Shown here: positions 32,200-53,121 of the stretch, piece after piece
Numbering within the stretch: position 1 is the first letter of the stretch
How the letters are laid out: every line of letters begins with the position of its first letter
Origin: a virus
Virus record (IMG/VR): IMGVR_UViG_3300028800_000061
Coordinates: 64,001 to 128,000 of that record
DNA: 64,000 nt
Direction: 5' to 3' (one strand)
The notes under the pieces: generated by a model
Seen by the model: only the letters and a program-made list of their open reading frames with translations
What the model was told of the DNA's origin: nothing
Databases searched by the model: none
Position numbers and translations under genes: made by a program

Positions 32200-35100
32200 C
32201 TATTTGGTTGCGAGCGTGAGACCGTTAGTACCGTTCCTGCGGTTGTAACGCAGGGTGTACTTCTGGTCAGTAGCCTGAAGATTGCTGCCGGTCGGCCATT
32301 GCATCTTCAACGTCAAATTCAGTGTCTGCTGGGAAGATGTGACACCGAACCCGCCCGCTCCTTGCGATGCGGCCAGGGCCACGCCTGTGGCCGGGTGCAC
32401 AGTCCCAGGTGCAGTTGCGCTGCTGAGCGCCCTCATGGCAGCAGTCACATGCGGCAGCCCGGCGATGATTCCTTGCGCGAGTCCTTGTGACACCATCATC
32501 CCGTGCTGGTACATCACCGTCGATGGCGACTTGATCCCCAGATCTTTCTTGATCTGGCTGACCATGCCTTTAGCGATCTTCGTCATTTCCTTCGTGATCG
32601 CTTTTTCTTGCGCTTCCAGCCCGGATAGGAAACCCTTCCCGGCCTGGGCGCCCGAGTCATACATGGCGTTAGCGGCGGTTTGCCCAAGCGACTTAGACGC
32701 CGAAGTGATACCAGACTCGGCTTTGTTGATCGCCTTAATGTTCCCCGGGACCTGCAATAGCGCCTTCGCGATGGCCAGGCCCTGCACGGGCCCGGCCTGG
32801 ATGATCTGGTTGATGTAATCCTTGTTCAGCCCCAGTTTCGACAGTTGGCCGATCGCCGACTTGAACTGGTTTATCTGGGACAGGTCGGCCTGCAAGTTGG
32901 CCAGAATGTTCTGCGAGGTGATCGGCCCGCTACCCGCTGCCGACACGAGATCAAACGTGCCAGCGACGCTACTGGCCGTGTTCGTGGCGAACGTTTTCGC
33001 CTTGGAAATCGTTGACATGATCGCGGATCGTTTGGTGGCGAGGGCTTGCAGTTTGTTGTTGTCAGCCTCGATCCACTTGGTTACGTTGCTCTCCGTCTGA
33101 GAGGAGATATCGCCCGCGTCAAACGCTTCCTTGATGTAGGTGACCAGTTTCCCGGCTGCCGATTTGACTTTCGACGCAGTTCCCTCAAGTCCCGCGACTA
33201 TGCCGTTGCCGATTTCAACCGCAATGTTCTGCATGACCTTCGACGGTGAGCTGATCCCGAGCACGCTCTTGATTGACGATATGGCCGCGCTGCCGATACT
33301 GCCTGCCGCGTCACGTACGGCCCCGAGGGACGCGGTGATTCCGTGAACGAAACCCATGATCAGGTTCTTGGCCAGGTCGTACAGCAACGTGACCGCACCG
33401 TTGAAAATGGTCCGCATCACGTTGAGGATGCCGTGGATCTCATCCGAGGTCAGTTTTTTCAGGTCGGTCCACGCTTTCGCCCAGTGCCCGGTGATGATGT
33501 CCAGGAACAGTGCGATGGCGTCGCGGATTATGGCCAGCTCGGCGCGGATTAGCGCGGCGACAGTATCCCAGACTAGTTTAACCGTGTCGCGTATCAGGCC
33601 CCACGCGATAGTCCATGCGGCTTTAATCACTGCCAGGTCGATTTTGATCGTCGCGATTATCTCGGCGAGATACGTCTTGACGATGAAACTTACAACCGCC
33701 CAGACGACCCGTGCGACCTCTTCGATTTCCTTGTGGTTCTGCTCCCACCACACCCTGAATGCTGCAATCTGCTGCTTCACAAACACAAGCGGGCCGTGAA
33801 CGAACCAGTCGATCACGGCACCCGCGGCGCGCATCGCCACCGCCCAGGCGGATTTGAAAGCGTTCGCGACATCATGAACGATGTCACGGACCAGTTTGCT
33901 GTGCTCATACAGTTCGTACAGGCCAAGCGCGAGTGCGCCGATCGCAATGATCGCGACACCGACGGGGTTAGCTGAGAGAACTGCGCCAAGGCCCTCCACC
34001 GAGGCGGTGACCAGCTCCACCCCCACCGCGATAGCGATAACCGCCCCAGCGAACGCCGCCATCTTCTCGTGGTGGGAAATGAACTCCATGAACTTGTCAA
34101 CCGCCCGCACGACTTTGGTGAAGATGGGCAGCAGTTTCGTCCCGAAAGTGATGACCAGGTTCTCGACATCGGCGAGGAACTGAGTCCAGGCGAAGTGCGC
34201 TGTCTTCTCCGTCTCAGACCACGACTTGCCGTATCCTGATACCGCCTTGCCTATGCCTTCGTACTTGGTTCTGATGTTGTCCAGATTCGACATCAGGGAC
34301 AGCATGGCTTTGTCGGACCGGCCGCCGCCGAACAGTTTCGCCATGACCTGCGAGGCCTGGGCTGCTGACAGCCCGGACGCTTTGAAGGCTTTCTCCATGT
34401 CCGACAACGCGATGTAGATGCCGTCAGGTTTCCGCAGATCCGTGGCGATCTTGTTGACTGTCAGCCCGTAGGAATTCATCACATCGGCCAGCGACTTGTT
34501 TTTCAACGTGATATTGTCGGTCGCCAGTCCAAGTGACCGCAGGAACGTGTTCGCCTCCTTCGACCCTGATGTGACCATGGAAAGCCCCATGGTCAACCGG
34601 GTTGAAGCTGTCTCCGCAGTGTTACCCCGGTCAGTCAGGTACGCCAAGGCCGCACCCATTGACCGGATCGAAATGCCCATGGCCGCGGCGGTAGGCGCCC
34701 AGTTCTTAATTGACTGGTTAAAGTTCTGGAAGCGCATGTCGCCCTGGCCGACGATCGCGTTCAGCAACCCGGCGGTCTTGGCGGCGTCACTGGTGTTCAG
34801 GTTGAACGCCTTCATCACCGATGACAGGGCGTACGTTGTGTCTTCCAGATCGGCGCCGTGGATCTGCGCGAGCTTGGCCGAGTTGGCGACAGTCGCAAGC
34901 GAGTTACTCAGACTCAGGCCAGCGCTAATTGGGTGGTAGAGAGCCGTCGCGATGGCTGTGCCAGATTCCCCAGTCTGGTATCCGATCTGGAGGATCTTCT
35001 GGGACAGTGCGGCCATGCTTATACCGGTCAAGTGCGCGGCGGTGTACAACTGGGTGACGGCAGCCTGAAACTTCATCGCTTTGTCGATGGAGTAACCCAC

Positions 35101-35889
35101 GGCGACTGCGACTCCGGCGATGGCCAGCTTCGTTGCTGAGCCGAGTCCGGCCATCGCGCCGGCGTTCCGCTCGTTCGCGGCCGCTTCCTCGTTGGCCATA
35201 TCCCGTGTCAGCCGCTCGTCCGCTGCCAGGGTCTGCTGAGCTTTCGCCGAGGTCGCCGCAGCCCGGGCGGACGCTATGTGGGCATCCCGGAGTGCCGCTT
35301 GCACCTCGAGGGCGCTCTTGGCCATGTCCGCTTCGAGCGCCTCAGCTTCAGCGAGCTTGGATTCGGCGGCCGCCGCTTCAGCCGCCGACGCAGCCAGCGC
35401 TCTCTGCTCCTCCGCTGCTGCTGCGGCGGCGGCGCCGGCCCGCTCAGCTCCGGCAGCCGCCTCAGTTGTCGCCTCGCCGGCGGCCTGCGCACCGGCGGCG
35501 AGGCGCGCTTCCGCTGCGGCAGCCTCGGATGCGGCGTCGATTGCGCGGGCGAGCCCATCCACCAGCAGCCACTCGGCTGAGGTGAGATCTGTTTCGGCGG
35601 CGACGGTTTGCATGGCCGCGGTGGACAGTTCCTCTTGCGCCGCGGCCTGCTCGGTCGCGGCTGCTGTCGCAGCCTCGGATGCTGCGGTAGTGTCGGCGGC
35701 GCCGGTTGCGATCCCGCCCGCGCTGACCGCACCAGCGGTTGCCTCGGTTGATGCGCGAGCCAGATCTTGCACCTCAGCGATTGAGGCCATCAGCCGCTCG
35801 TTGCTGGCGATCATCTCGTCGATGCCCGCAACCCATTTACTGGCATCCGCGACAAACTCTTCGATCGCTGGTGGCAGCAGTTCAGACAC
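32200..35889 (-). CDS. tape measure protein (TP901-like core)
   Basis: 1229 aa, Ala-rich helical, TMP core motif, W/F-periodic repeats, LGISSPSKVM and LGIKSPSTVM. Confidence 0.92.
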   Translation of the reverse strand: MSELLPPAIEEFVADASKWVAGIDEMIASNERLMASIAEVQDLARASTEATAGAVSAGGIATGAADTTAASEAATAAATEQAAAQEELSTAAMQTVAAETDLTSAEWLLVDGLARAIDAASEAAAAEARLAAGAQAAGEATTEAAAGAERAGAAAAAAAEEQRALAASAAEAAAAESKLAEAEALEADMAKSALEVQAALRDAHIASARAAATSAKAQQTLAADERLTRDMANEEAAANERNAGAMAGLGSATKLAIAGVAVAVGYSIDKAMKFQAAVTQLYTAAHLTGISMAALSQKILQIGYQTGESGTAIATALYHPISAGLSLSNSLATVANSAKLAQIHGADLEDTTYALSSVMKAFNLNTSDAAKTAGLLNAIVGQGDMRFQNFNQSIKNWAPTAAAMGISIRSMGAALAYLTDRGNTAETASTRLTMGLSMVTSGSKEANTFLRSLGLATDNITLKNKSLADVMNSYGLTVNKIATDLRKPDGIYIALSDMEKAFKASGLSAAQASQVMAKLFGGGRSDKAMLSLMSNLDNIRTKYEGIGKAVSGYGKSWSETEKTAHFAWTQFLADVENLVITFGTKLLPIFTKVVRAVDKFMEFISHHEKMAAFAGAVIAIAVGVELVTASVEGLGAVLSANPVGVAIIAIGALALGLYELYEHSKLVRDIVHDVANAFKSAWAVAMRAAGAVIDWFVHGPLVFVKQQIAAFRVWWEQNHKEIEEVARVVWAVVSFIVKTYLAEIIATIKIDLAVIKAAWTIAWGLIRDTVKLVWDTVAALIRAELAIIRDAIALFLDIITGHWAKAWTDLKKLTSDEIHGILNVMRTIFNGAVTLLYDLAKNLIMGFVHGITASLGAVRDAAGSIGSAAISSIKSVLGISSPSKVMQNIAVEIGNGIVAGLEGTASKVKSAAGKLVTYIKEAFDAGDISSQTESNVTKWIEADNNKLQALATKRSAIMSTISKAKTFATNTASSVAGTFDLVSAAGSGPITSQNILANLQADLSQINQFKSAIGQLSKLGLNKDYINQIIQAGPVQGLAIAKALLQVPGNIKAINKAESGITSASKSLGQTAANAMYDSGAQAGKGFLSGLEAQEKAITKEMTKIAKGMVSQIKKDLGIKSPSTVMYQHGMMVSQGLAQGIIAGLPHVTAAMRALSSATAPGTVHPATGVALAASQGAGGFGVTSSQQTLNLTLKMQWPTGSNLQATDQKYTLRYNRRNGTNGLTLATK

Positions 35890-36349: not shown

Positions 36350-36894
36350 TCATTTCGGGTTGGACATGATCTGGGTGGCGTAATCGCGGGCCTCAGCGAT
36401 TACCGGTGCGACAGTCGCCCAATCGGACGGGAGTGCGTCTACTTGCTCGGGAGTCCACCCGTATCGCTCGGCGAACCAGGACCACTCGATGTACTCGTCA
36501 GGGAGCGGGCAGGCGGCGCCGGGTCGCCTGAGGAAGTAGTCGGCAAGACGCTGCCTGAGATGGTCTGGGGTTTTGGGCCGTTCAGCACCCGGTCGTAGAC
36601 CGGACGGACCGCCTGGTACAAGGCGTCCTGATCGTCCATGGAGAGGTTGTTCAGGATCGCGTCACCGTCAACCGCTTGCCCTGGCAGCGGCTGCGCCAGC
36701 GTCCAGCCGATGATCATGCGTTTCAGCAGGGCATACATGATGCGGTCTTCGAGTTCGGCGGTGAATACCCGCGACTCGTCCCCGTTGATGGTGATGGAGA
36801 TCGCGCCGCGGGCAGCTCGCCGGTCTCCTCCGTTGGGCTCGTCACGCAGATCGGCGTGATTGCCGGCGGACAGTTGCACGCGCAAACCAGTCAC
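36350..36894 (-). CDS. tail assembly chaperones G/GT via -1 frameshift at C-CCA-AAA (36577-36571)
   Basis: 0-frame ORF 36439-36894; the -1 frame stays open to TGA 36350 and encodes WFAERYGWTPEQVDALP; downstream of the tail tube gene. Confidence 0.85.
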
Positions 36895-44338: not shown

Positions 44339-47248
44339 TCAGTTAGGAGGGACTGATGCCGCTCCCAGCTTGTCGAGGACCGAGAGGGCCCTTTCCCGGG
44401 TTCCCGGGTCAGATGATTTGGCGCGGTCCTCGATGTAGGCGCGGTAAGACAGTTCCTCGATAGATGCGCGTGTGCGGGCTTTCTCGGCGGCTTCTTCCAC
44501 CAGGTTGCGGCGTTCCACGGGAACGGCCGGCGTGGTGGCTTGCCGGGCCAGTGCGCCCCTGACGGGGGCCATCGCTGGGTCGGGCTTAGAGCCGAGCTCG
44601 TCGACCTGCTTGCGCAGTTCAGTGATCTGGGTGTCGTAACGCTCGGCGAGCGGCGCGATCTGCTCGGCGAGAAGTGATTTCAGCACGTCCGCTGTCAGCC
44701 CTGGTGCCGCAGCCGGCTGGGTGACCGTTTCGGGTGCGGTGTGCGGGTTGCGGCGCTCGTACTTGGCAATGGCCTTCTTGAACGCCTTGGCCAGCTGCTC
44801 CTCAGTCAGCCCATCTGGGGCTTTCCCGACAGTGCTGATTCCTCCCTGCGCGGGTGGAGTGTGCGGTGTCGGGACATTCCTGGCACCAAGATCTGGTGGC
44901 AGGACACTCTTCGATGTGGCCATCGGGCACAGGTCAGGGAACGTCGCCGCGATGTGGTCGTGCATGCTCTGCAGCGCCACCCTGGCCTGCTCACGGGAAC
45001 TGTTGGAGTAGTAGGTGCGCGCCGCGCTCGGGCTCCCCGGTGCGACCCGGTTGTTGTCACCAGTGTTGGCCGGGCTTTCAGCTTCGTGCCCGGCCGTGAT
45101 CAGCGGCCGGTCGAACTGCTCCGGCTCCGGAGTGTGGTGGGATGGCGGGATGTTCGGTGAGCCACGATCTGTGGCGTCCTCCGACGCAGTGGGCCCGGAC
45201 AGGTACGGCCGTTGGAACTGGCCTGGCTTCACGCCATCACCCGGCTTGATGTGCTCAGTCGGGTACATGTCCTGGAAGGCCTTGTGCAGCAGCGCGCGGC
45301 CGTCCTCGACGGCGGCCGGGTGCATGCTTTTCACCGCTTGCGCGGCACCCACCAGGGCGGTCAGGCGGCCCGCTTCGGTGGTCTTGCCCGCGGCCGCGGC
45401 CGCGGCCGCCAGCTCACCAAACCACGACTCGTCGATGCCAGCGCCGATCGCTTTCAACGACGGGTAGCTGTCCATGACGGCCTGCGTGTCGAAGGCCGCG
45501 CAGGCCATGTCGTGCATCCGGCCGACCGTGTACGGCGCATCAGTTTTGACTGAGGACGGCACCTTGTCCGGTGTCCGGTCCGGGTCGGTTGGCAGGCCAG
45601 CATCCGGCTCGAACTGCTCGACGGTGGATGTGCCATCCGGCTCGCGGTGCTCACCGACTGGCTTGGTGTCACCTGGCAACGGCCGGCGTGCGGCTTTCTC
45701 CGTGCCCGCCTGGGCGAGGATCTCGTCGGCGGCAGCCTGGGAGATCATGCCCATCTCAACGGACTTGGCCAGGGTTGCGGTGAGCGCTTCCACTGCGGCA
45801 CGCTTCGCTGCTTTGCCCATGCCGGGGAGCTTCTTGCCGCATCCGCCGCAGAACTTGGCATCGGTGTCGGCGTGGTAGTTCTTGCCGCATCCCTTGCAGG
45901 TGCGCCCGCCGGTCTTCGCTGTGTCCGCCTCGACCGGGGTGGTGCCGGTGTCCGCGGTGTCCTTCGCTGCGGCCTTGCCGGAGCCTTTGCAATCCGGGCA
46001 GTCCATCTTGCCGCCACGGATCTTCCCGTCACCCTTGCAGGTGCCGCATTTCATCCCGGAAGCATCAGGGTCACCGTCGCTAGATGGCGCCCCATTCGCT
46101 TTCACCAGGTCGAGATCGCTGTCGATCTCGCCGGCTCCGCTGGCCTTCCACGTGTCGGGGATCTTGTCTTCCATCCCGAGCGCAGATGCGCGGCGTTTGA
46201 TGTGCGAGCGGGCCGCAGCCGGGTCCTTGGCGTTGCCGGCCAGGTGAATGGCGTTATCCAGGTCCTCCCCGTTCTTGATCGGGAACGATCCGTCGGGCAT
46301 CGCTGCACCCGTGTCCGCTGCGGCGTCACGCTGCGACTGAGTGAAGTCGCGCTTCGCCAGCCACCGCTCGGCGCCGTCGCGGTCACCGCCGAGACCTTCG
46401 GCGTTGCCCTCGGCGTGCCAGCGCATCCAGTCGGCGCGCTTGGCCAGGTACTCGGTACCGCCGGCGATGCCCTTGACTGATGGCTCCCGCGAGAGCCACT
46501 GGCGGCGGGCGGCCTTATATGCGGTGCGGGTTGGCTCATCGGCTTTGGCGACGGCATCAGCGTCGTCATCGTCCGGGTCGTCAGTGCTGGCGTCCTCGCC
46601 GGCGGCGGGCAGGTTTGGTGGCGGCTCCTCTGCGTCCTCACCGCCGTCCGGGTTCTGCCCTTGATCGGCGGGAACAGGGCCGGCTTTGGTCAGCAGGTCC
46701 TCCGTGTCGGCCGACTCGTACTCACCGAACATTTCCCCGACCAGCTCCATGGATCCGCCGTCGGCCGACTTGGCCAGGACCAGCCCGCAGTTTTTGTTAG
46801 CGGGCCTGTCAACAAGTGACAGCTCAGCCAGTTCGCCGCCGTTGATGATCCCACCGCGGGCTTTCCCGCTCGGATCACGGGAAATGACCGGCCGGGCGAC
46901 ACCGATGCTGTACGCGGTGAGGACACCTTTTTCCACCAGCCGCTTTGCGACCGGCTCGACTACGAGCGATTTGACGTAATGCCCGCCGTCGCCGTCCCGG
47001 TCGATTTCGATGGACAGCGCCTTGCCGGCGGGGTCGCGGCGGGACTGGTGCTGAACCCTGACGTTGCCGCCAGTGTCCCGCCACTCCTGCAGCGCTTTCG
47101 CCGACCAGACCGGGTCGACGATCTGCTCGTCAGTGTCAACGCTGCCGTCCGTGGCCTTGCCGTACACGACAAGGTCCCCGTCAGCGTCCTTCACGAATTT
47201 GACAATTGGGAAGCTGACATAGGTCAGTTCGGAAACGGCTGTTGCCAC
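44339..47248 (-). CDS. prohead protease/scaffold multidomain protein
   Basis: N-terminal HK97-like protease (VRVQH, AYSIG, ELSLVDRPAN), AMPDGSFPI..AI domain, CxxC zinc fingers, C-terminal coiled coil. Confidence 0.85.
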   Translation of the reverse strand: MATAVSELTYVSFPIVKFVKDADGDLVVYGKATDGSVDTDEQIVDPVWSAKALQEWRDTGGNVRVQHQSRRDPAGKALSIEIDRDGDGGHYVKSLVVEPVAKRLVEKGVLTAYSIGVARPVISRDPSGKARGGIINGGELAELSLVDRPANKNCGLVLAKSADGGSMELVGEMFGEYESADTEDLLTKAGPVPADQGQNPDGGEDAEEPPPNLPAAGEDASTDDPDDDDADAVAKADEPTRTAYKAARRQWLSREPSVKGIAGGTEYLAKRADWMRWHAEGNAEGLGGDRDGAERWLAKRDFTQSQRDAAADTGAAMPDGSFPIKNGEDLDNAIHLAGNAKDPAAARSHIKRRASALGMEDKIPDTWKASGAGEIDSDLDLVKANGAPSSDGDPDASGMKCGTCKGDGKIRGGKMDCPDCKGSGKAAAKDTADTGTTPVEADTAKTGGRTCKGCGKNYHADTDAKFCGGCGKKLPGMGKAAKRAAVEALTATLAKSVEMGMISQAAADEILAQAGTEKAARRPLPGDTKPVGEHREPDGTSTVEQFEPDAGLPTDPDRTPDKVPSSVKTDAPYTVGRMHDMACAAFDTQAVMDSYPSLKAIGAGIDESWFGELAAAAAAAGKTTEAGRLTALVGAAQAVKSMHPAAVEDGRALLHKAFQDMYPTEHIKPGDGVKPGQFQRPYLSGPTASEDATDRGSPNIPPSHHTPEPEQFDRPLITAGHEAESPANTGDNNRVAPGSPSAARTYYSNSSREQARVALQSMHDHIAATFPDLCPMATSKSVLPPDLGARNVPTPHTPPAQGGISTVGKAPDGLTEEQLAKAFKKAIAKYERRNPHTAPETVTQPAAAPGLTADVLKSLLAEQIAPLAERYDTQITELRKQVDELGSKPDPAMAPVRGALARQATTPAVPVERRNLVEEAAEKARTRASIEELSYRAYIEDRAKSSDPGTRERALSVLDKLGAASVPPN

Positions 47249-47291: not shown

Positions 47292-47963
47292 TCAGGCGGG
47301 CATGCAGAAGGGCCGCCCGCGGAGGACGGCCCTTCTGTCAGTTGCTGGCGGGTGGGTTAATCTCTCACCCTCGGATTGCCGCATCCGTTTATGTATGCCG
47401 TCGCGGCTGTAGCGGGTGGTGCAGGGCGGGCATGCGGGGGCGATGTTGGTGATATCGACGTTCAGGTAGTTGCCGTCGAGTTGGACGGCGAACAGTTCAG
47501 CGGTGCCGCCGATGGTCCGGCCCCACGATGCGAGCTGCCCGCACCAGTGGCACGGGTGCGGGCCCGGGCCGATCGCGTCATACAGCACTTTGCGGTGCAT
47601 GTAGACGTCGCCGTTGGCGTCGGCCAGCGGGTGGGTGCGGGCTTTGACCCGGATCCGGCCGTTGAGCATGATGGCTCCGGCGCCGTTCGGGCGGCGCAGG
47701 ACGATCGCAGGGTCTCCGTGTTTGCGCCAGCGGCCGTAGTGGGTGCTGCACCAGCCCAGCGATCGCGCTCGCTGGGTGCATTCCGGGAACTTGCACACAG
47801 GTGCAGGGGCTTGCCTGGGCGGAGCGATTGGGTCACCTGTGCGCCGCCACTGCTGGTAGTGCCGCCAGCAGTAGCGCATGGCAACCCAGCGTTCGGGGCA
47901 TTCCGGTACGCGGCAGATCTTGTCCCCTGCTGGCAAAGTCAGAAGGCCGGGCTGGTCTGTCAC
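47292..47963 (-). CDS. free-standing HNH endonuclease-like protein with degenerate active site
   Basis: Two CxxxxC..CxxHY repeats, YMHRKV, CHWCG; AVQLDG..N..N..CPPCT where DH..N..CxxCN is expected. Confidence 0.7.
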   Translation of the reverse strand: MTDQPGLLTLPAGDKICRVPECPERWVAMRYCWRHYQQWRRTGDPIAPPRQAPAPVCKFPECTQRARSLGWCSTHYGRWRKHGDPAIVLRRPNGAGAIMLNGRIRVKARTHPLADANGDVYMHRKVLYDAIGPGPHPCHWCGQLASWGRTIGGTAELFAVQLDGNYLNVDITNIAPACPPCTTRYSRDGIHKRMRQSEGERLTHPPATDRRAVLRGRPFCMPA

Positions 47964-48340
47964 GGTCCTGTCTGATCTTCTGTAGGCACAGGTGCCTGGT
48001 CCCGGCTGGCTGCGGCGTTGAAGGTGGCGAGGGCCTGTTTGGCGGCACGGTGCTGCATGTGGTCCACTCCCCGCTCGGTGAGGCACCAGCCGGTTGTGGT
48101 TACGACATCACCGCCGGGGGTCGCTTCGGCCATGAACCAGGCCCAGGACCCAATGGCTGCTTTTCTGCGCATGGTGACGGTGGCGTTCACCCGGATCGCC
48201 TGCTCACGTGCGTGAGATTGCGCGCGGGCGCTGAAAAGGTTGCAGATGGCACGTCTGCGCCGTCTCGCGATTATCATCGCGATCATGCCAAAACCGCCCG
48301 TGAGGGCCACTATGGTAACGAATAGCCACGCAATTGTCAC
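47960..48340 (-). CDS. membrane-anchored hypothetical protein
   Basis: N-terminal TM followed by RRRRR; operonic overlaps. Confidence 0.5.
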   Translation of the reverse strand: MTIAWLFVTIVALTGGFGMIAMIIARRRRRAICNLFSARAQSHAREQAIRVNATVTMRRKAAIGSWAWFMAEATPGGDVVTTTGWCLTERGVDHMQHRAAKQALATFNAAASRDQAPVPTEDQTGP

Positions 48341-49012: not shown

Positions 49013-50206
49013 GTGCGCACTGTGGACGATGCGGAACTCAAAACCAGGTACTTGCACGGTGAGGCAGTCGGTGTCATAGCTGCTGCCGCCGGGATGAGCA
49101 GAAAGAAGCTGCGGCACAGGCTGATAAGCCTCGATGTACCTCTCCGTGCCAGGACCGAGCTGATCGTGCAGCGTGCCCGGCAACTCGACGGGACTGATAC
49201 CGACGCCCGCTATACCGCCGGAGCGGGAATCGCCGAGCTTGCTGTCGATCTCACCGCCGAGCTCGGCGTGCACATCAGCGAAGGGGTTGTCCGCACATGG
49301 CTTGAAATGCGGGATGTTCCCCTCCGGGGCCGGTCAGCAGCAGCGAAACTTGCCTCCACTGCCCGGACCCGTGAGCAGCGCATGGAAATGACCGCCGCGG
49401 CGCGTGCGAGCACCCGGGGAATCCCCGTGCCGATCGAACGGCGACTGGCGGCCGCTATCGGCAGGGAGAACCCGCGGCCGGGAAGCTTGCCTCCCGCGAA
49501 CCGGGATCTGGCGCAAATCCTGCAGCGGTCCGGCCGGAGAGTTACCACGCTCAAAGCCGCTGGGCCGTACAGCATTCCCGTTGCGACCGGCACCACGGGC
49601 ATCGACCTGACCGCCAAAAGCACCGAGTGGATGCTGCGCGTACGCGGCCCGCGCTTGAGGTACCTGCTCGAAACCGGATGGGATGTCCTGTTCCTCCGCG
49701 TCATGTCGACCAGGTTCCCGATCCCGCCCGCGATGGCAGATCTGGTTTTCGACCGGCTCGCATGGCGCGACGGGCACCCGGACTCCCCACGCCGGTTCAT
49801 GGTGATCGACCGGAACGGCCAGATCATCCGGCAAGGATTCGCAGACGACTTGCCGCCATCCAACCTGGGTGCCACATCACGGATGATGCGTAAGCAGGAC
49901 TGCGGCAGCCAGTTAGATGACATCCGCCGGCATCATCGACTGCCCGGTGTCTCCCGGGTACAAGGAGCACCGGCAGTTCGGGTGAGCCGGCGGCTGATCA
50001 TCACCGGAGGGAAACTCATCCCCTACCGGGATCAGCCCGGCCGCCTCGTTGCCATCGCACACGGCGCACACCGTTGCGTCCCCAGCGGTGGCCCATCCGA
50101 CCGCCGCGATCCTGGCCTGCTGGTAGTACGCCAGCGCCGCCAAGGACATCGACCAGGTCACCTCGGTCTGGGTCACGACCAGGGCGGCAGGCTCATTTCC
50201 GAGTAG
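49013..50206 (+). CDS. HTH-repeat plus Vsr/DUF559-like endonuclease, antisense to the late operon, degenerate
   Basis: Two RY..G....IA....G repeats; GPYSIPVA..GIDL..RLRYLLETGWDVLFL. Confidence 0.55.
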   Translation: MRTVDDAELKTRYLHGEAVGVIAAAAGMSRKKLRHRLISLDVPLRARTELIVQRARQLDGTDTDARYTAGAGIAELAVDLTAELGVHISEGVVRTWLEMRDVPLRGRSAAAKLASTARTREQRMEMTAAARASTRGIPVPIERRLAAAIGRENPRPGSLPPANRDLAQILQRSGRRVTTLKAAGPYSIPVATGTTGIDLTAKSTEWMLRVRGPRLRYLLETGWDVLFLRVMSTRFPIPPAMADLVFDRLAWRDGHPDSPRRFMVIDRNGQIIRQGFADDLPPSNLGATSRMMRKQDCGSQLDDIRRHHRLPGVSRVQGAPAVRVSRRLIITGGKLIPYRDQPGRLVAIAHGAHRCVPSGGPSDRRDPGLLVVRQRRQGHRPGHLGLGHDQGGRLISE

Positions 50207-50653
50207 CCCATCGAGTACGCCAGTGAGTTGCCCTGCGGTGAGCCCACCCGCAACCGCAGCGAGAAGGGCTTGCTCCAGCCGTGTCACCCGCGTTGCCACC
50301 AGGCCGCCCACCCGCCGGTCACCCTCGTCAAGGATCGACTGCAGTGAGCTGTCCGGCGCGTCCAGGTCGATGCTGGTGATCTGGACGGCCGAGTTCCGGC
50401 CGAGCCGCCAGCCGTCCGCCCACAACTCCCGCATGATCCTGGTGAGCGCCACAGTTAGCGCTGCGGTAACCCCGGTTCGTTGCAGGTACCGTTTCGGGCC
50501 ACGCGGCCGCGCTGCTGCACCTGCCCCGTTGCCGCTAGCCAGCCACCCGGCAGCGAAATCGGCGGGCAAAACGCCCTGCAGTTCCCTGGCGAGCCGGCCA
50601 GCGTACTGGGCTGCTAGCTGCCGGTCCCGCTCCCACCCGGGCCAGTCAGGGCT
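49913..50653 (-). CDS. MuF/SPP1 gp7-like head morphogenesis domain, probably reached by -1 frameshift from the portal
   Basis: TQTE, WATAGDATVCAVCDGN, FPSGDDQPPAHPNCRC; frame is open from the slippery site. Confidence 0.85.
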   Translation of the reverse strand, partial: SPDWPGWERDRQLAAQYAGRLARELQGVLPADFAAGWLASGNGAGAAARPRGPKRYLQRTGVTAALTVALTRIMRELWADGWRLGRNSAVQITSIDLDAPDSSLQSILDEGDRRVGGLVATRVTRLEQALLAAVAGGLTAGQLTGVLDGLLGNEPAALVVTQTEVTWSMSLAALAYYQQARIAAVGWATAGDATVCAVCDGNEAAGLIPVGDEFPSGDDQPPAHPNCRCSLYPGDTGQSMMPADVI

Positions 50654-53121
50654 TTTGGGCTGCCATCATCCCCGCCACCCTTGTTGAGCTTGGCCCGGTT
50701 CATCGCCCCGTCCCACGGCCCGGTGTCCGTGCCCACAACACCGACCCATGCGAGGGTGCTTGTTTTGCCTGCCCGTTTGAGAGCGAGAGTCCGGTGCCAG
50801 CCGTCAGCGATCTCGTACTTCGCCTGGCCGGGTACTTTCACCAGCACGACCGGCGCGAGTTGCGTCCCGGCCCGGATGGATGCGGCGATCGCTTCTACTT
50901 TCGCCGGGTTGCGTGCACCGCCCGGGCGGCGGGCCATCTCGATCCGGGACAGTGCCACGGATACCGGCCCATGCCACCGTGCATCTTTGACCCACTCCAG
51001 CACGGCGGCCGGGTAGTGCCGTGCCAGGTACGCGTACACCTCATGTGTCAGATCGGCGTGGCTGGTCTGCGCCGCGATCTCTGCTGTGCTCTTGGTGCTC
51101 AGCATCGACCGGGCTACATCGCACACCTGATCGGCGGTCAAGCCCTTGCCCAGGTCCTCCTCGATGCTGGCGAGCAGTGCAGCGGGCAGATCTTGCGGCG
51201 CCCACCCGGTGACTGTGCCGCCTTTGCGCAGGTGATTGCGCAGCAGATCCAGTTCTCGCAGTTGCCCTTTCCTCGCGGAGGTTGGAGTGGCGTTCGCGGA
51301 GCCGACCGCACCGGAGCGCGCACCGGAGTGCGCCGGGGTGCCCCGGCCGGACTGGCTGACCGCGCCGCCGATTGCCCGCGGTGCCGGCTGCTGGGCGACC
51401 GTGGCGGGCCCCGCTGGTGGCGCCTGCTGCGGGGCGGTCGACGGGCCGCTTGTTCCTGCGATCTGCGCTGGATCCAGCGGTGCAGGTGTGGGCCGGGAGC
51501 CGGTGACCTGCGGTGCGGTCGGCGCACCAGCGAACGGGACGAAACCCTCGCGGACAGTCGCCCATCCAGGGTCGGAGGTGACAGGAAGGTTCCACGGGTC
51601 GCGGCCCAGCTCGACACGGGCCTCATCGACGGAGCACAATCCTGCGCTAATCTGCTCCACAAGAAGGGTTGTCAGAGTGGCGGCGTCTTCATCTTCTTCC
51701 AATCCTTCCCATTGCCACTCAAGGTCTTCCTGCCCGCACACATCTTGCAAGATCCTGTCGAATACCGCGGCCTTCAGCCACATTAGCAAGGGGACGGTTC
51801 CCTTGCGCTCCTGAATGTCCTGCCCGGCTTTCGCCATCTGGTTCGCCGCACCGACACTCTGGGTCGCGGAGACACGCGGTGAGATGCCCAGTTCCATGGG
51901 CATGACGGAGAACGCCATGCACACCTGGGTCATGATGATCTCATCGAACTGGTCGGCCAGGCTCGCGGGCTTCTGCGGGTCCACTTTCGACCCGCCTGGG
52001 AGAACAATGATTTTGTGCTTCCATGCTTGATCACCGGCAAGGGCATTCAGCGCGTCTTGAAGCTCCCGGATCTGCTGCGGGGTCATGTTCGTGTCACCCG
52101 GCGAAACGAACAGGCCAGGAATGGATCCCTCTTGGAAAAAGTTCAGCTGATACTGCTGCCGGTTCAACCCAGCCATGACCGGGATAATCGCCCGCTCAAT
52201 GGGCGCCTGACCGTACGGTGTCCACGTGCGGGCGGTGTACGGCAGGTACATCAGCTGATCGCCCCGGTACTCCGCGATGAGCCCGTCATCTGCGGTTTCC
52301 TCAACCAGCAGCGTCATCAGGTCCACACGCGGGACACCGTATTCGTATTGCTGATAGGCTGGGTTGGGCGGTGCTGGCACTCCGCCAAGCACATCCACCA
52401 GTGGCCGGATAAGTGTCCCGTCGATAAGATCTAGCGCGGCCACGTTTGATCCGAGCAGGCCCTTGTTCCGCACTTTCGACGGGTGCACGTACAGCGCCAG
52501 GGCGTCGGTAACGAACACTTCCTCAAGCAACGCGTCGAACCATGAGGAAAAATCGCCGTAGCGCGGATCGGGCTGGCGGAAGAACTTGACAGCCTGCGCC
52601 CTGCGCTCCGCGAAGTCGGCCATGCCGCTGTGCGAGCCCCGCAACGATTTCGCGGCGTCCCTTGTCAGGGCAATGTTCCACCCGACGCCACGCAACTCCG
52701 ATTTGCGCAATTCGATGCACGCACGGGCGACACTGTACAGGTCCGCGAGAGTCCGCAGAGTCTGGAAGTCGGCGAGCTTTCCAAGGCCTTCCGTGCCGGG
52801 CATGCCCATAGGCATGTCCCAGCCGATCGGGTACTGGAAGCGCCTTATCGGCGGCCTTTCCTCACCCGGTTCCGGAGTGTCAATCGGGACTGGCTCTATG
52901 GGGGCGAGCGGCCCGAACATGCCGGACAGGAATGTTCGCCAGTCTCGTGGCAGCCCGCCGTGCTGGCCGGCTGACCGGCCGGAGGTCCACTCGTTGTAAG
53001 AGGCAACGAGCGGGGACGGGCCCGGGCTGATCGACGGCGGTGTGACCGTGGCGAATCCGCCTGACCGGCCAGCGGCTGTCGCTTTCAGGGTGCGGGTGAT
53101 GGCGCGCAGGTCCGTGGGCAC
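50614..53121 (-). CDS. portal protein with C-terminal ParB/Srx-like domain
   Basis: LRTLADLYSVARACIE, LIDGTLIRPL, PYGQAPIE, FQEGSIPG, SVDEAR.ELG; C-terminal PVVLV..YEIADGWHR. Confidence 0.9.
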   Translation of the reverse strand: MPTDLRAITRTLKATAAGRSGGFATVTPPSISPGPSPLVASYNEWTSGRSAGQHGGLPRDWRTFLSGMFGPLAPIEPVPIDTPEPGEERPPIRRFQYPIGWDMPMGMPGTEGLGKLADFQTLRTLADLYSVARACIELRKSELRGVGWNIALTRDAAKSLRGSHSGMADFAERRAQAVKFFRQPDPRYGDFSSWFDALLEEVFVTDALALYVHPSKVRNKGLLGSNVAALDLIDGTLIRPLVDVLGGVPAPPNPAYQQYEYGVPRVDLMTLLVEETADDGLIAEYRGDQLMYLPYTARTWTPYGQAPIERAIIPVMAGLNRQQYQLNFFQEGSIPGLFVSPGDTNMTPQQIRELQDALNALAGDQAWKHKIIVLPGGSKVDPQKPASLADQFDEIIMTQVCMAFSVMPMELGISPRVSATQSVGAANQMAKAGQDIQERKGTVPLLMWLKAAVFDRILQDVCGQEDLEWQWEGLEEDEDAATLTTLLVEQISAGLCSVDEARVELGRDPWNLPVTSDPGWATVREGFVPFAGAPTAPQVTGSRPTPAPLDPAQIAGTSGPSTAPQQAPPAGPATVAQQPAPRAIGGAVSQSGRGTPAHSGARSGAVGSANATPTSARKGQLRELDLLRNHLRKGGTVTGWAPQDLPAALLASIEEDLGKGLTADQVCDVARSMLSTKSTAEIAAQTSHADLTHEVYAYLARHYPAAVLEWVKDARWHGPVSVALSRIEMARRPGGARNPAKVEAIAASIRAGTQLAPVVLVKVPGQAKYEIADGWHRTLALKRAGKTSTLAWVGVVGTDTGPWDGAMNRAKLNKGGGDDGSPKALTGPGGSGTGS

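Follow-up and report, generated by a model that had tools for sequence, protein, structure and literature searches.

The locus analysed here lies on the minus strand of a 64,000-nucleotide (nt) stretch of DNA from a soil phage, positions 64,001 to 128,000 of the IMG/VR record IMGVR_UViG_3300028800_000061; this 64-kb stretch, with a G+C content of 66%, is referred to below as the window. A gene for a phage portal protein, extended by a ParB-like domain, here overlaps a second coding region, in the -1 frame, for a MuF protein, and the heptamer C CCA AAA lies in the overlap. We propose, with a probability of roughly 0.85, that this heptamer is a programmed -1 ribosomal frameshift site at the portal/MuF junction. 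An earlier reading of the same DNA (the original prediction) had suggested such a joining of portal to MuF, and comparative sequence evidence strongly supports it. The features of the junction are:

50614..53121, minus strand: frame-0 open reading frame (ORF) of 835 amino acids (aa; P0001), from the ORF list and its translation, comprising portal, C-terminal Pro/Ala linker and ParB-like domain
51604..52581, minus strand: Phage_portal domain PF04860 (aa 181-506), from Pfam
50677..51051, minus strand: ParB/sulfiredoxin-like domain (aa about 691-815), from PHROG, precomputed PF02195 and alignment
50668-50666, minus strand: TGA closing the -1 (MuF) frame, three codons upstream of the heptamer
50659-50653, minus strand: slippery heptamer C CCA AAA, phased as X XXY YYZ in the portal frame and encoding Pro-Lys in both frames
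directly after the heptamer, minus strand: frame-0 tail of 12 residues, ALTGPGGSGTGS
50616-50614, minus strand: frame-0 stop TAG, 12 codons past the Lys codon of the heptamer
49913..50659, minus strand: -1 frame coding region (P0002), a linker and a MuF/SPP1 gp7-like module, 246 aa after Pro-Lys
50567..50569, minus strand: TTG, the first possible start in the MuF frame and a rival start site, 30 codons after the CCC codon
49961..50278, minus strand: Phage_Mu_F core PF04233 (aa 130-235 of P0002), carrying a CxxC...HPNCRC motif
49915-49913, minus strand: TAA ending the -1 frame, which is open for 250 codons from the TGA at 50668-50666

The assignment of the frame-0 ORF as a portal is firm: it scores 55.3 bits against PF04860, above the curated cut-off of 39.1, and matches the portal family phrog_2662 with an E value of 2.7e-48. 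Closer to its C-terminus, PHROG ParB-like families match aa 734-786 (E 2.7e-5), PF02195 is precomputed for P0003, a protein identical to the window's 835-aa ORF, and the ParB DGxHR motif is kept, as ADGWHRT, across our alignment of homologues (alignment A1). A Pfam scan of the portal ORF gave no ParB match at E <= 0.01, and judged by its profile matches the domain appears to be a weak member of the ParB_N/sulfiredoxin-like family (PF02195). The -1 frame product matches PF04233 with an E value of 8.9e-6, its 26.9 bits falling just short of the cut-off (29.6); it is also matched by PHROG head-morphogenesis and minor-head families, and its close homologues have precomputed PF04233. Both frames are covered by one and the same profile, since, of the 717 positions of phrog_2662, 34-411 correspond to the portal ORF and 562-707 to the -1 frame product. 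The two halves thus occur in the right order, and they would form one polypeptide in the window only if the predicted frameshift occurs.

Around the slip site the portal frame reads AGC CCA AAA GCC. The heptamer and its phase, as well as the TGA that closes the -1 frame just upstream, are found where the original prediction had placed them. CCCAAAA alone is unremarkable in the window, with 4 copies observed on the two strands and 4.1 expected; by our own arithmetic from these counts, the chance of an in-phase copy within the two-frame overlap of about 52 nt is roughly 5e-4. The conservation of the heptamer in homologues is a stronger argument than its placement. Transcriptional slippage was considered for this site and rejected, as its four A fall far short of the 9-A/T runs at which slippage is known (PMC5009743).

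After the TGA, the -1 frame reads W Q P K S P D W P G W E R D R Q L A A Q Y A G R L. The 28 codons that follow Pro-Lys are devoid of ATG, GTG and TTG, and the first start codon is the TTG at 50569, which bears out the earlier description of a -1 frame that lacks a start over this stretch. In alignment A1, frame-0 residues GGDDGSPK followed by -1 frame residues SPDWPGWERDRQLAA (also written SPDWPGWERDRQLAAQYA) match the consensus GGGxxPKxxxxPGWxHDxALA, in which Pro-Lys is invariant among the in-frame fusions. P0002 aligns with these in-frame fusion homologues from residue 3-10 onwards, through the linker and the MuF N-terminus. Because the consensus continues across both frames, the homology of the window switches frame exactly at the heptamer, and by this comparison the 28 codons without a start that follow Pro-Lys do code for protein.

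A search across 5.8 billion proteins returned 281 relatives. Many of them are single ORFs of 1050-1450 aa with the order portal-(ParB, NUDIX or other)-MuF, and several stop, like the protein of the window, 11-18 residues past a Pro-Lys. The DNA of seven such relatives (loci L015-L021) was retrieved from JGI, ENA and Logan assemblies of different samples; their portal domains are 69-83% identical to that of the window. All seven have C CCA AAA in the portal frame and the MuF N-terminus (PGW.HD..LA) in the -1 frame, so that, with the window included, the homology changes frame exactly at the heptamer in 8/8 loci of this layout. The frame-0 stop lies 11-18 codons past the heptamer in all eight and falls on the same homologous codon pair: it is a TAG spanning the -1 codons CTA GCN (ATA GCC in L020) of a conserved Leu/Ile-Ala, and CTA and ATA are rare codons in the DNA of these relatives, which has 64-69% G+C. 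In six of the eight, the interval from the upstream -1 stop to the heptamer contains no start codon, and the first downstream start comes 22-94 codons into the MuF frame (91-94 in L017 and L018). In the relatives the MuF frame is intact over 245-653 codons (in L015, over 62 codons to the contig end) and retains the CxxC...HPxCRC motif, and in every relative of this layout that was examined, gene callers overlook the fusion and annotate a shortened MuF.

A portal-domain alignment scan of IMG/VR and of JGI metagenome contigs widened the comparison to 160 loci. After deduplication, four layouts can be told apart among the loci in which MuF is detectable downstream of the portal:

-1 layout, window included: 8 distinct loci
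in-frame fusion, CCCAAAA in phase immediately ahead of the MuF N-terminus: 19 distinct loci
in-frame fusion without the heptamer: 14 distinct loci
separate portal and MuF genes: 17 distinct loci

The identical in-phase C CCA AAA is therefore present in 27 distinct homologous loci, eight of the -1 layout and 19 in-frame, and the conservation of CCCAAAA and of an open -1 frame, which the original prediction had named as a check, came out positive in seven other contigs, with the heptamer kept in the 19 in-frame fusions besides. In these loci CCCAAAA is usually the sole copy on its strand within 4-13 kb. Both of its codons are uncommon in the ORFs concerned, CCA making up 7.9% of Pro and AAA 22.7% of Lys codons, and C is the last base of 44% of codons; from these frequencies, a conserved x-Pro-Lys would be expected to read C CCA AAA in about 0.8% of cases per lineage. 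When the fused relatives that lack CCCAAAA were searched for other X XXY YYZ heptamers, none was found. No match to the locus was returned by blastn against GenBank phages, leaving it without an isolated relative there; tblastn of MuF against the same phages gave a single weak match, to a Brevundimonas phage, and a scan of genome contigs one locus, which is without MuF.

The in-frame fusions that carry the heptamer have a counterpart to the short frame-0 tail of the window. Their -1 frame stops 3-20 codons after the heptamer, as against background medians of 30-141, and a slip in these relatives would yield a portal without MuF. Within the first 12-20 codons of the -1 frame, nine loci share the motif W-x-x-Y-[DE]-G-L, at variable spacing from Pro-Lys and often with a final LARMEV: eight in-frame fusions (L051, L071, L072, L140, L153, L156, L160 and L161) and L085. 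In a portal product lacking MuF, this tail would be the C-terminal end. That it is kept, even in L085, where frame 0 does not encode MuF, argues that the -1 frame is translated.

The L085 locus (L085:8790-9624) is itself a fourth kind of layout. Its heptamer is followed by a different frame-0 module of 258 aa, and MuF begins 47 nt past the stop of that module, in the -1 frame relative to the portal.

Based on these observations, we infer that a ribosome positioned at C CCA AAA, its P site occupied by tRNA-Pro and its A site by tRNA-Lys, would in a fraction of passages slip one base back to CCC AAA and go on in the -1 frame. Two products would then arise from one start codon: (i) without the slip, the 835-aa portal-ParB protein ending in its 12-residue tail, and (ii) with it, a portal-ParB-MuF fusion of 823 + 246 = 1069 aa, a count that agrees with the length of about 1069 aa forecast earlier. 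Since the conserved N-terminus of MuF has no start codon of its own, MuF would be made in the window only as an extension of the portal, and could enter the head only by way of such a fusion. The site would determine in what proportion portal subunits carry MuF, and for a set fraction of these subunits the association of portal and MuF would be covalent.

Elements that could stimulate slipping were sought on both sides of the heptamer, where two candidates are present in the window:

50619..50647, minus strand: local hairpin CUGGCCCG..CGGGACCGG, -13.4 kcal/mol, beginning 8 nt after the heptamer
50665..50673, minus strand: G-rich Shine-Dalgarno-like tract GGGGAUGAU, 5 nt upstream of the heptamer, a candidate 5' stimulator

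The hairpin, which the original prediction had offered as the downstream element, does exist, but it is no better than chance, as 18 of 200 shuffled sequences fold as well (z -1.3), and it is not conserved in homologues. The wider fold of 70 nt in the window is average for a sequence of 66% G+C (z 0.04), the 70-nt folds downstream of the heptamer in 19 loci show no consistent excess of stability, and Rfam had no match in 50450-50800. A conserved 3' stimulator was consequently rejected, with only L039 (z -4.3) and L072 (z -2.3) standing out. In L039 a hairpin of -51.7 kcal/mol directly follows the heptamer (L039:8755-8824); a long inverted repeat that includes GCTAGCGGGAGCC underlies it, and a 3' structure of such strength is unique to this locus.

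The upstream side is more uniform. The tract of the window forms a duplex of -8.3 kcal/mol with the 3' tail of 16S rRNA, which places it in the top 8.5% of upstream segments. The sequence GGTG[GA]TG occurs within 28 nt upstream of the heptamer in 14 of the 27 loci, mostly exactly 4 nt before it, and is read in two codon phases, ten loci encoding Gly-Gly there and four Val-Val; L017 and L156, for example, have the same nucleotides there and different amino acids, by way of compensating indels. The use of two codon phases points to a constraint on the RNA or DNA and not on the peptide. In 20 of the 27 loci the upstream 26 nt rank in the top 10% of segments of the same ORF for pairing with the 16S 3' tail. 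On the other side, the base after the heptamer is a conserved G. We regard the GGTG[GA]TG tract as a candidate 5' stimulator only.

The same facts could be read without any recoding, with portal-ParB and MuF as separate proteins, MuF starting at TTG 50569 or downstream of it, perhaps by re-initiation after the TAG, and the heptamer being incidental. Gene callers do annotate relatives as separate portal-ParB and MuF, downstream of the heptamer we found no strong stimulatory RNA structure, and truly separate MuF genes with an ATG or GTG of their own exist in the family: in L004 the ATG overlaps the portal stop, in L005 a GTG lies 6 nt past it, and L030 is a third case. All three, however, start upstream of the WPGW motif and not after it, as a late start in the window would have to, and an independent start at TTG 50569 would drop 30 codons of conserved sequence homologous to the in-frame fusions. 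A first start 91-94 codons into MuF, as in L017 and L018, is hard to reconcile with independent initiation, and neither the switch of homology at the heptamer in every -1 locus nor the conservation of a heptamer made of rare codons would be expected if it were incidental. We consider this explanation unlikely. Even less probable, to the point of being hardly credible, is that the loss of one base, or a sequencing error in the run of A, broke an in-frame portal-MuF fusion and left MuF as a decaying remnant. In-frame fusions are indeed common, the two layouts can differ by a single base beside the heptamer, and homopolymer runs are typical sites of error; but the layout recurs in seven other far-diverged contigs, which come from different samples and were built by different assemblers, and two contigs on record have the identical 835-aa ORF. 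The MuF frames of the relatives are intact and keep their cysteine motifs, as those of a decaying remnant would not, the frame-0 stop occupies the same homologous position in all -1 loci, and a random indel would not hit the same heptamer each time.

The conserved element of roughly 20 nt (GGTGGTGCNGG CCCAAAA G) might instead be a recombination linker for module exchange, with no part in slipping. It lies exactly at the boundary of exchangeable modules, and the modules upstream of it vary (ParB, NUDIX and others) while its nucleotides are kept, even across codon phases. Left unexplained by such a linker are the translation of the start-less MuF N-terminus in the eight -1 loci, the close stop in the other frame in both layouts, and the conserved peptide motif of the -1 tail. 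As a replacement for frameshifting we find the linker very improbable, although it could hold in addition to it.

Several observations weigh against a programmed -1 frameshift. The 14 in-frame fusions and 17 separate-gene relatives are without the heptamer, which is thus not obligatory for the family. No conserved structure was detected downstream: in 40-nt segments from 28 loci the median percentile is 0.29, only slightly more stable than background. The statistic of anti-Shine-Dalgarno enrichment upstream ignores shared ancestry. The Shine-Dalgarno-like tract lies 2-11 nt (mostly 4) from the heptamer, and the corresponding spacing in E. coli dnaX is 10 nt; because of this shorter spacing, its stimulatory role is uncertain. 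The ratio of nonsynonymous to synonymous substitution (dN/dS) of the start-less stretch, which is short and dual-coded, is just moderately below 1 (0.2-0.65, and 1.0 in one pair). Finally, the case is built on sequence.

As to how often ribosomes would slip, the original prediction of a minority fusion product is not supported. In a tree of portal domains, the -1, in-frame-with-heptamer and separate-gene types are interleaved, and L002 (in-frame) and L020 (-1) have a one-base difference between the heptamer and a shared TAAC. Atkins et al. describe dnaX as behaving in this way. Such repeated swapping of the frame that carries MuF hints, though no more than that, at an efficiency that is intermediate rather than low. 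Going further, we tentatively suggest, as an idea that may well prove wrong, that the site, with its upstream GGTGGTG tract, would be about half efficient, so that single-base indels could swap the MuF frame cheaply, and that it would be a general device for building a portal dodecamer of subunits with and without a bulky internal MuF/cargo extension; recoding at this junction might then have arisen repeatedly and be a widespread, unannotated rule of head assembly, comparable to the G/GT frameshift of tails.

The arrangement resembles known recoding systems in different respects. With E. coli dnaX (tau/gamma; PMC5009743) it shares an X XXY YYZ heptamer, by which one gene gives, or here would give, a long and a short product with a common N-terminus, and an upstream Shine-Dalgarno-like element, which is a stimulator in dnaX and a candidate here. 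According to that review, the long product needs the shift in some bacteria. Both layouts are found in the phage family too. The proteins are unrelated, however, the slip sequence is A AAA AAG in dnaX and C CCA AAA here, and the phage loci, known from sequence alone, have no conserved 3' stem-loop and a tract nearer to the heptamer. With gpG/gpGT of phage lambda the locus has in common a start-less downstream ORF translated, in the prediction, as a -1 extension, in an arrangement that is conserved across diverged phages and fixes the ratio of the products (Xu, Hendrix and Duda 2004, as cited in PMC7302621). In lambda this is a tail gene pair, whereas here it is the portal and MuF of the head, and many portal-MuF relatives either fuse the two constitutively or keep them as wholly separate genes, as G/GT pairs do not usually do. 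We take the shift site of Lactobacillus phage A2, which has capsid and tail -1 frameshifts, to be C CCA AAA as well, followed by a 3' stem-loop. In A2, too, a -1 frameshift extends a virion protein, the capsid protein (PMC5009743). There the extension is an Ig-like decoration, whereas here a whole assembly protein would be joined to the portal, and in DNA of a high-GC host, in which both codons of the heptamer are rare.

The two protein families have an established relationship of their own. In SPP1, the portal gp6 binds gp7, of the MuF family, and brings few copies of it into the interior of the procapsid, and MuF proteins often carry toxins for delivery (PMC6316719). The same families meet in the window, where a fusion would make the gp6-gp7 type of association covalent; in SPP1 the genes are separate, the interaction is non-covalent and there is no frameshift. 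Fusion genes of portal and MuF are known in Microbacterium phages of clusters EA3/EA5/EA8 and EB (PMC7302621), with the portal followed by MuF in one polypeptide, as in phrog_2662. These are described as plain single ORFs without recoding, whereas the window would need a frameshift and has a ParB-like domain in between. Portal-MuF fusions and -1 frameshifts are each known, then, but in the literature searched we found no description of a frameshift joining the two, and portal proteins are not mentioned in the accessible part of the recoding review (PMC5009743).

Proteins of the MuF/gp7 type travel into the capsid on the portal, frequently bringing along enzymes or toxins whose injection accompanies that of the DNA. 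If the proposal is right, frameshifting at the junction would fix the copy number of MuF at translation, and would explain why in many phages the MuF gene seems to be without a start codon or is annotated as truncated at the N-terminus. The family amounts to a natural experiment, in which the same slip site, with either frame 0 or frame -1 encoding the long product, stands beside constitutive fusions and split genes; given these varied layouts, the question of stoichiometry is directly testable.

The head module around the locus is a normal one, in the order portal, MuF, small ORFs, HNH endonuclease, a 969-aa protease-containing protein and the capsid gene; no transfer RNA (tRNA) genes were detected in the window. 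Two of the ORFs between MuF and the capsid gene are:

47292-48086, minus strand: HNH endonuclease ORF, between MuF and the 969-aa protein
44339-47248, minus strand: 969-aa protein with matches to head-maturation proteases, downstream of the HNH ORF

The homologues (P0004-P0122) have a variable cargo slot, placed either between portal and MuF or behind MuF. Its content differs among relatives and may be ParB_N, NUDIX, 2'-5' RNA ligase (PF13563), ADP-ribosyltransferase (PF03496) or Hint/intein-type (PF14528, PF13403) domains.

A second in-phase C CCA AAA occurs elsewhere in the window, at 36571-36577 on the minus strand, within an ORF of 151 aa (36439..36894, minus strand) that lies two genes upstream of the tape measure gene (32200..35889). 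Past this heptamer, frame 0 encodes a low-complexity tail of 45 residues, and the -1 frame is open for 75 codons and protein-like (..DEYIEWSWFAERYGWTPEQVDALP..). This is probably the phage's tail assembly chaperone frameshift of the G/GT type, using the same slip sequence.

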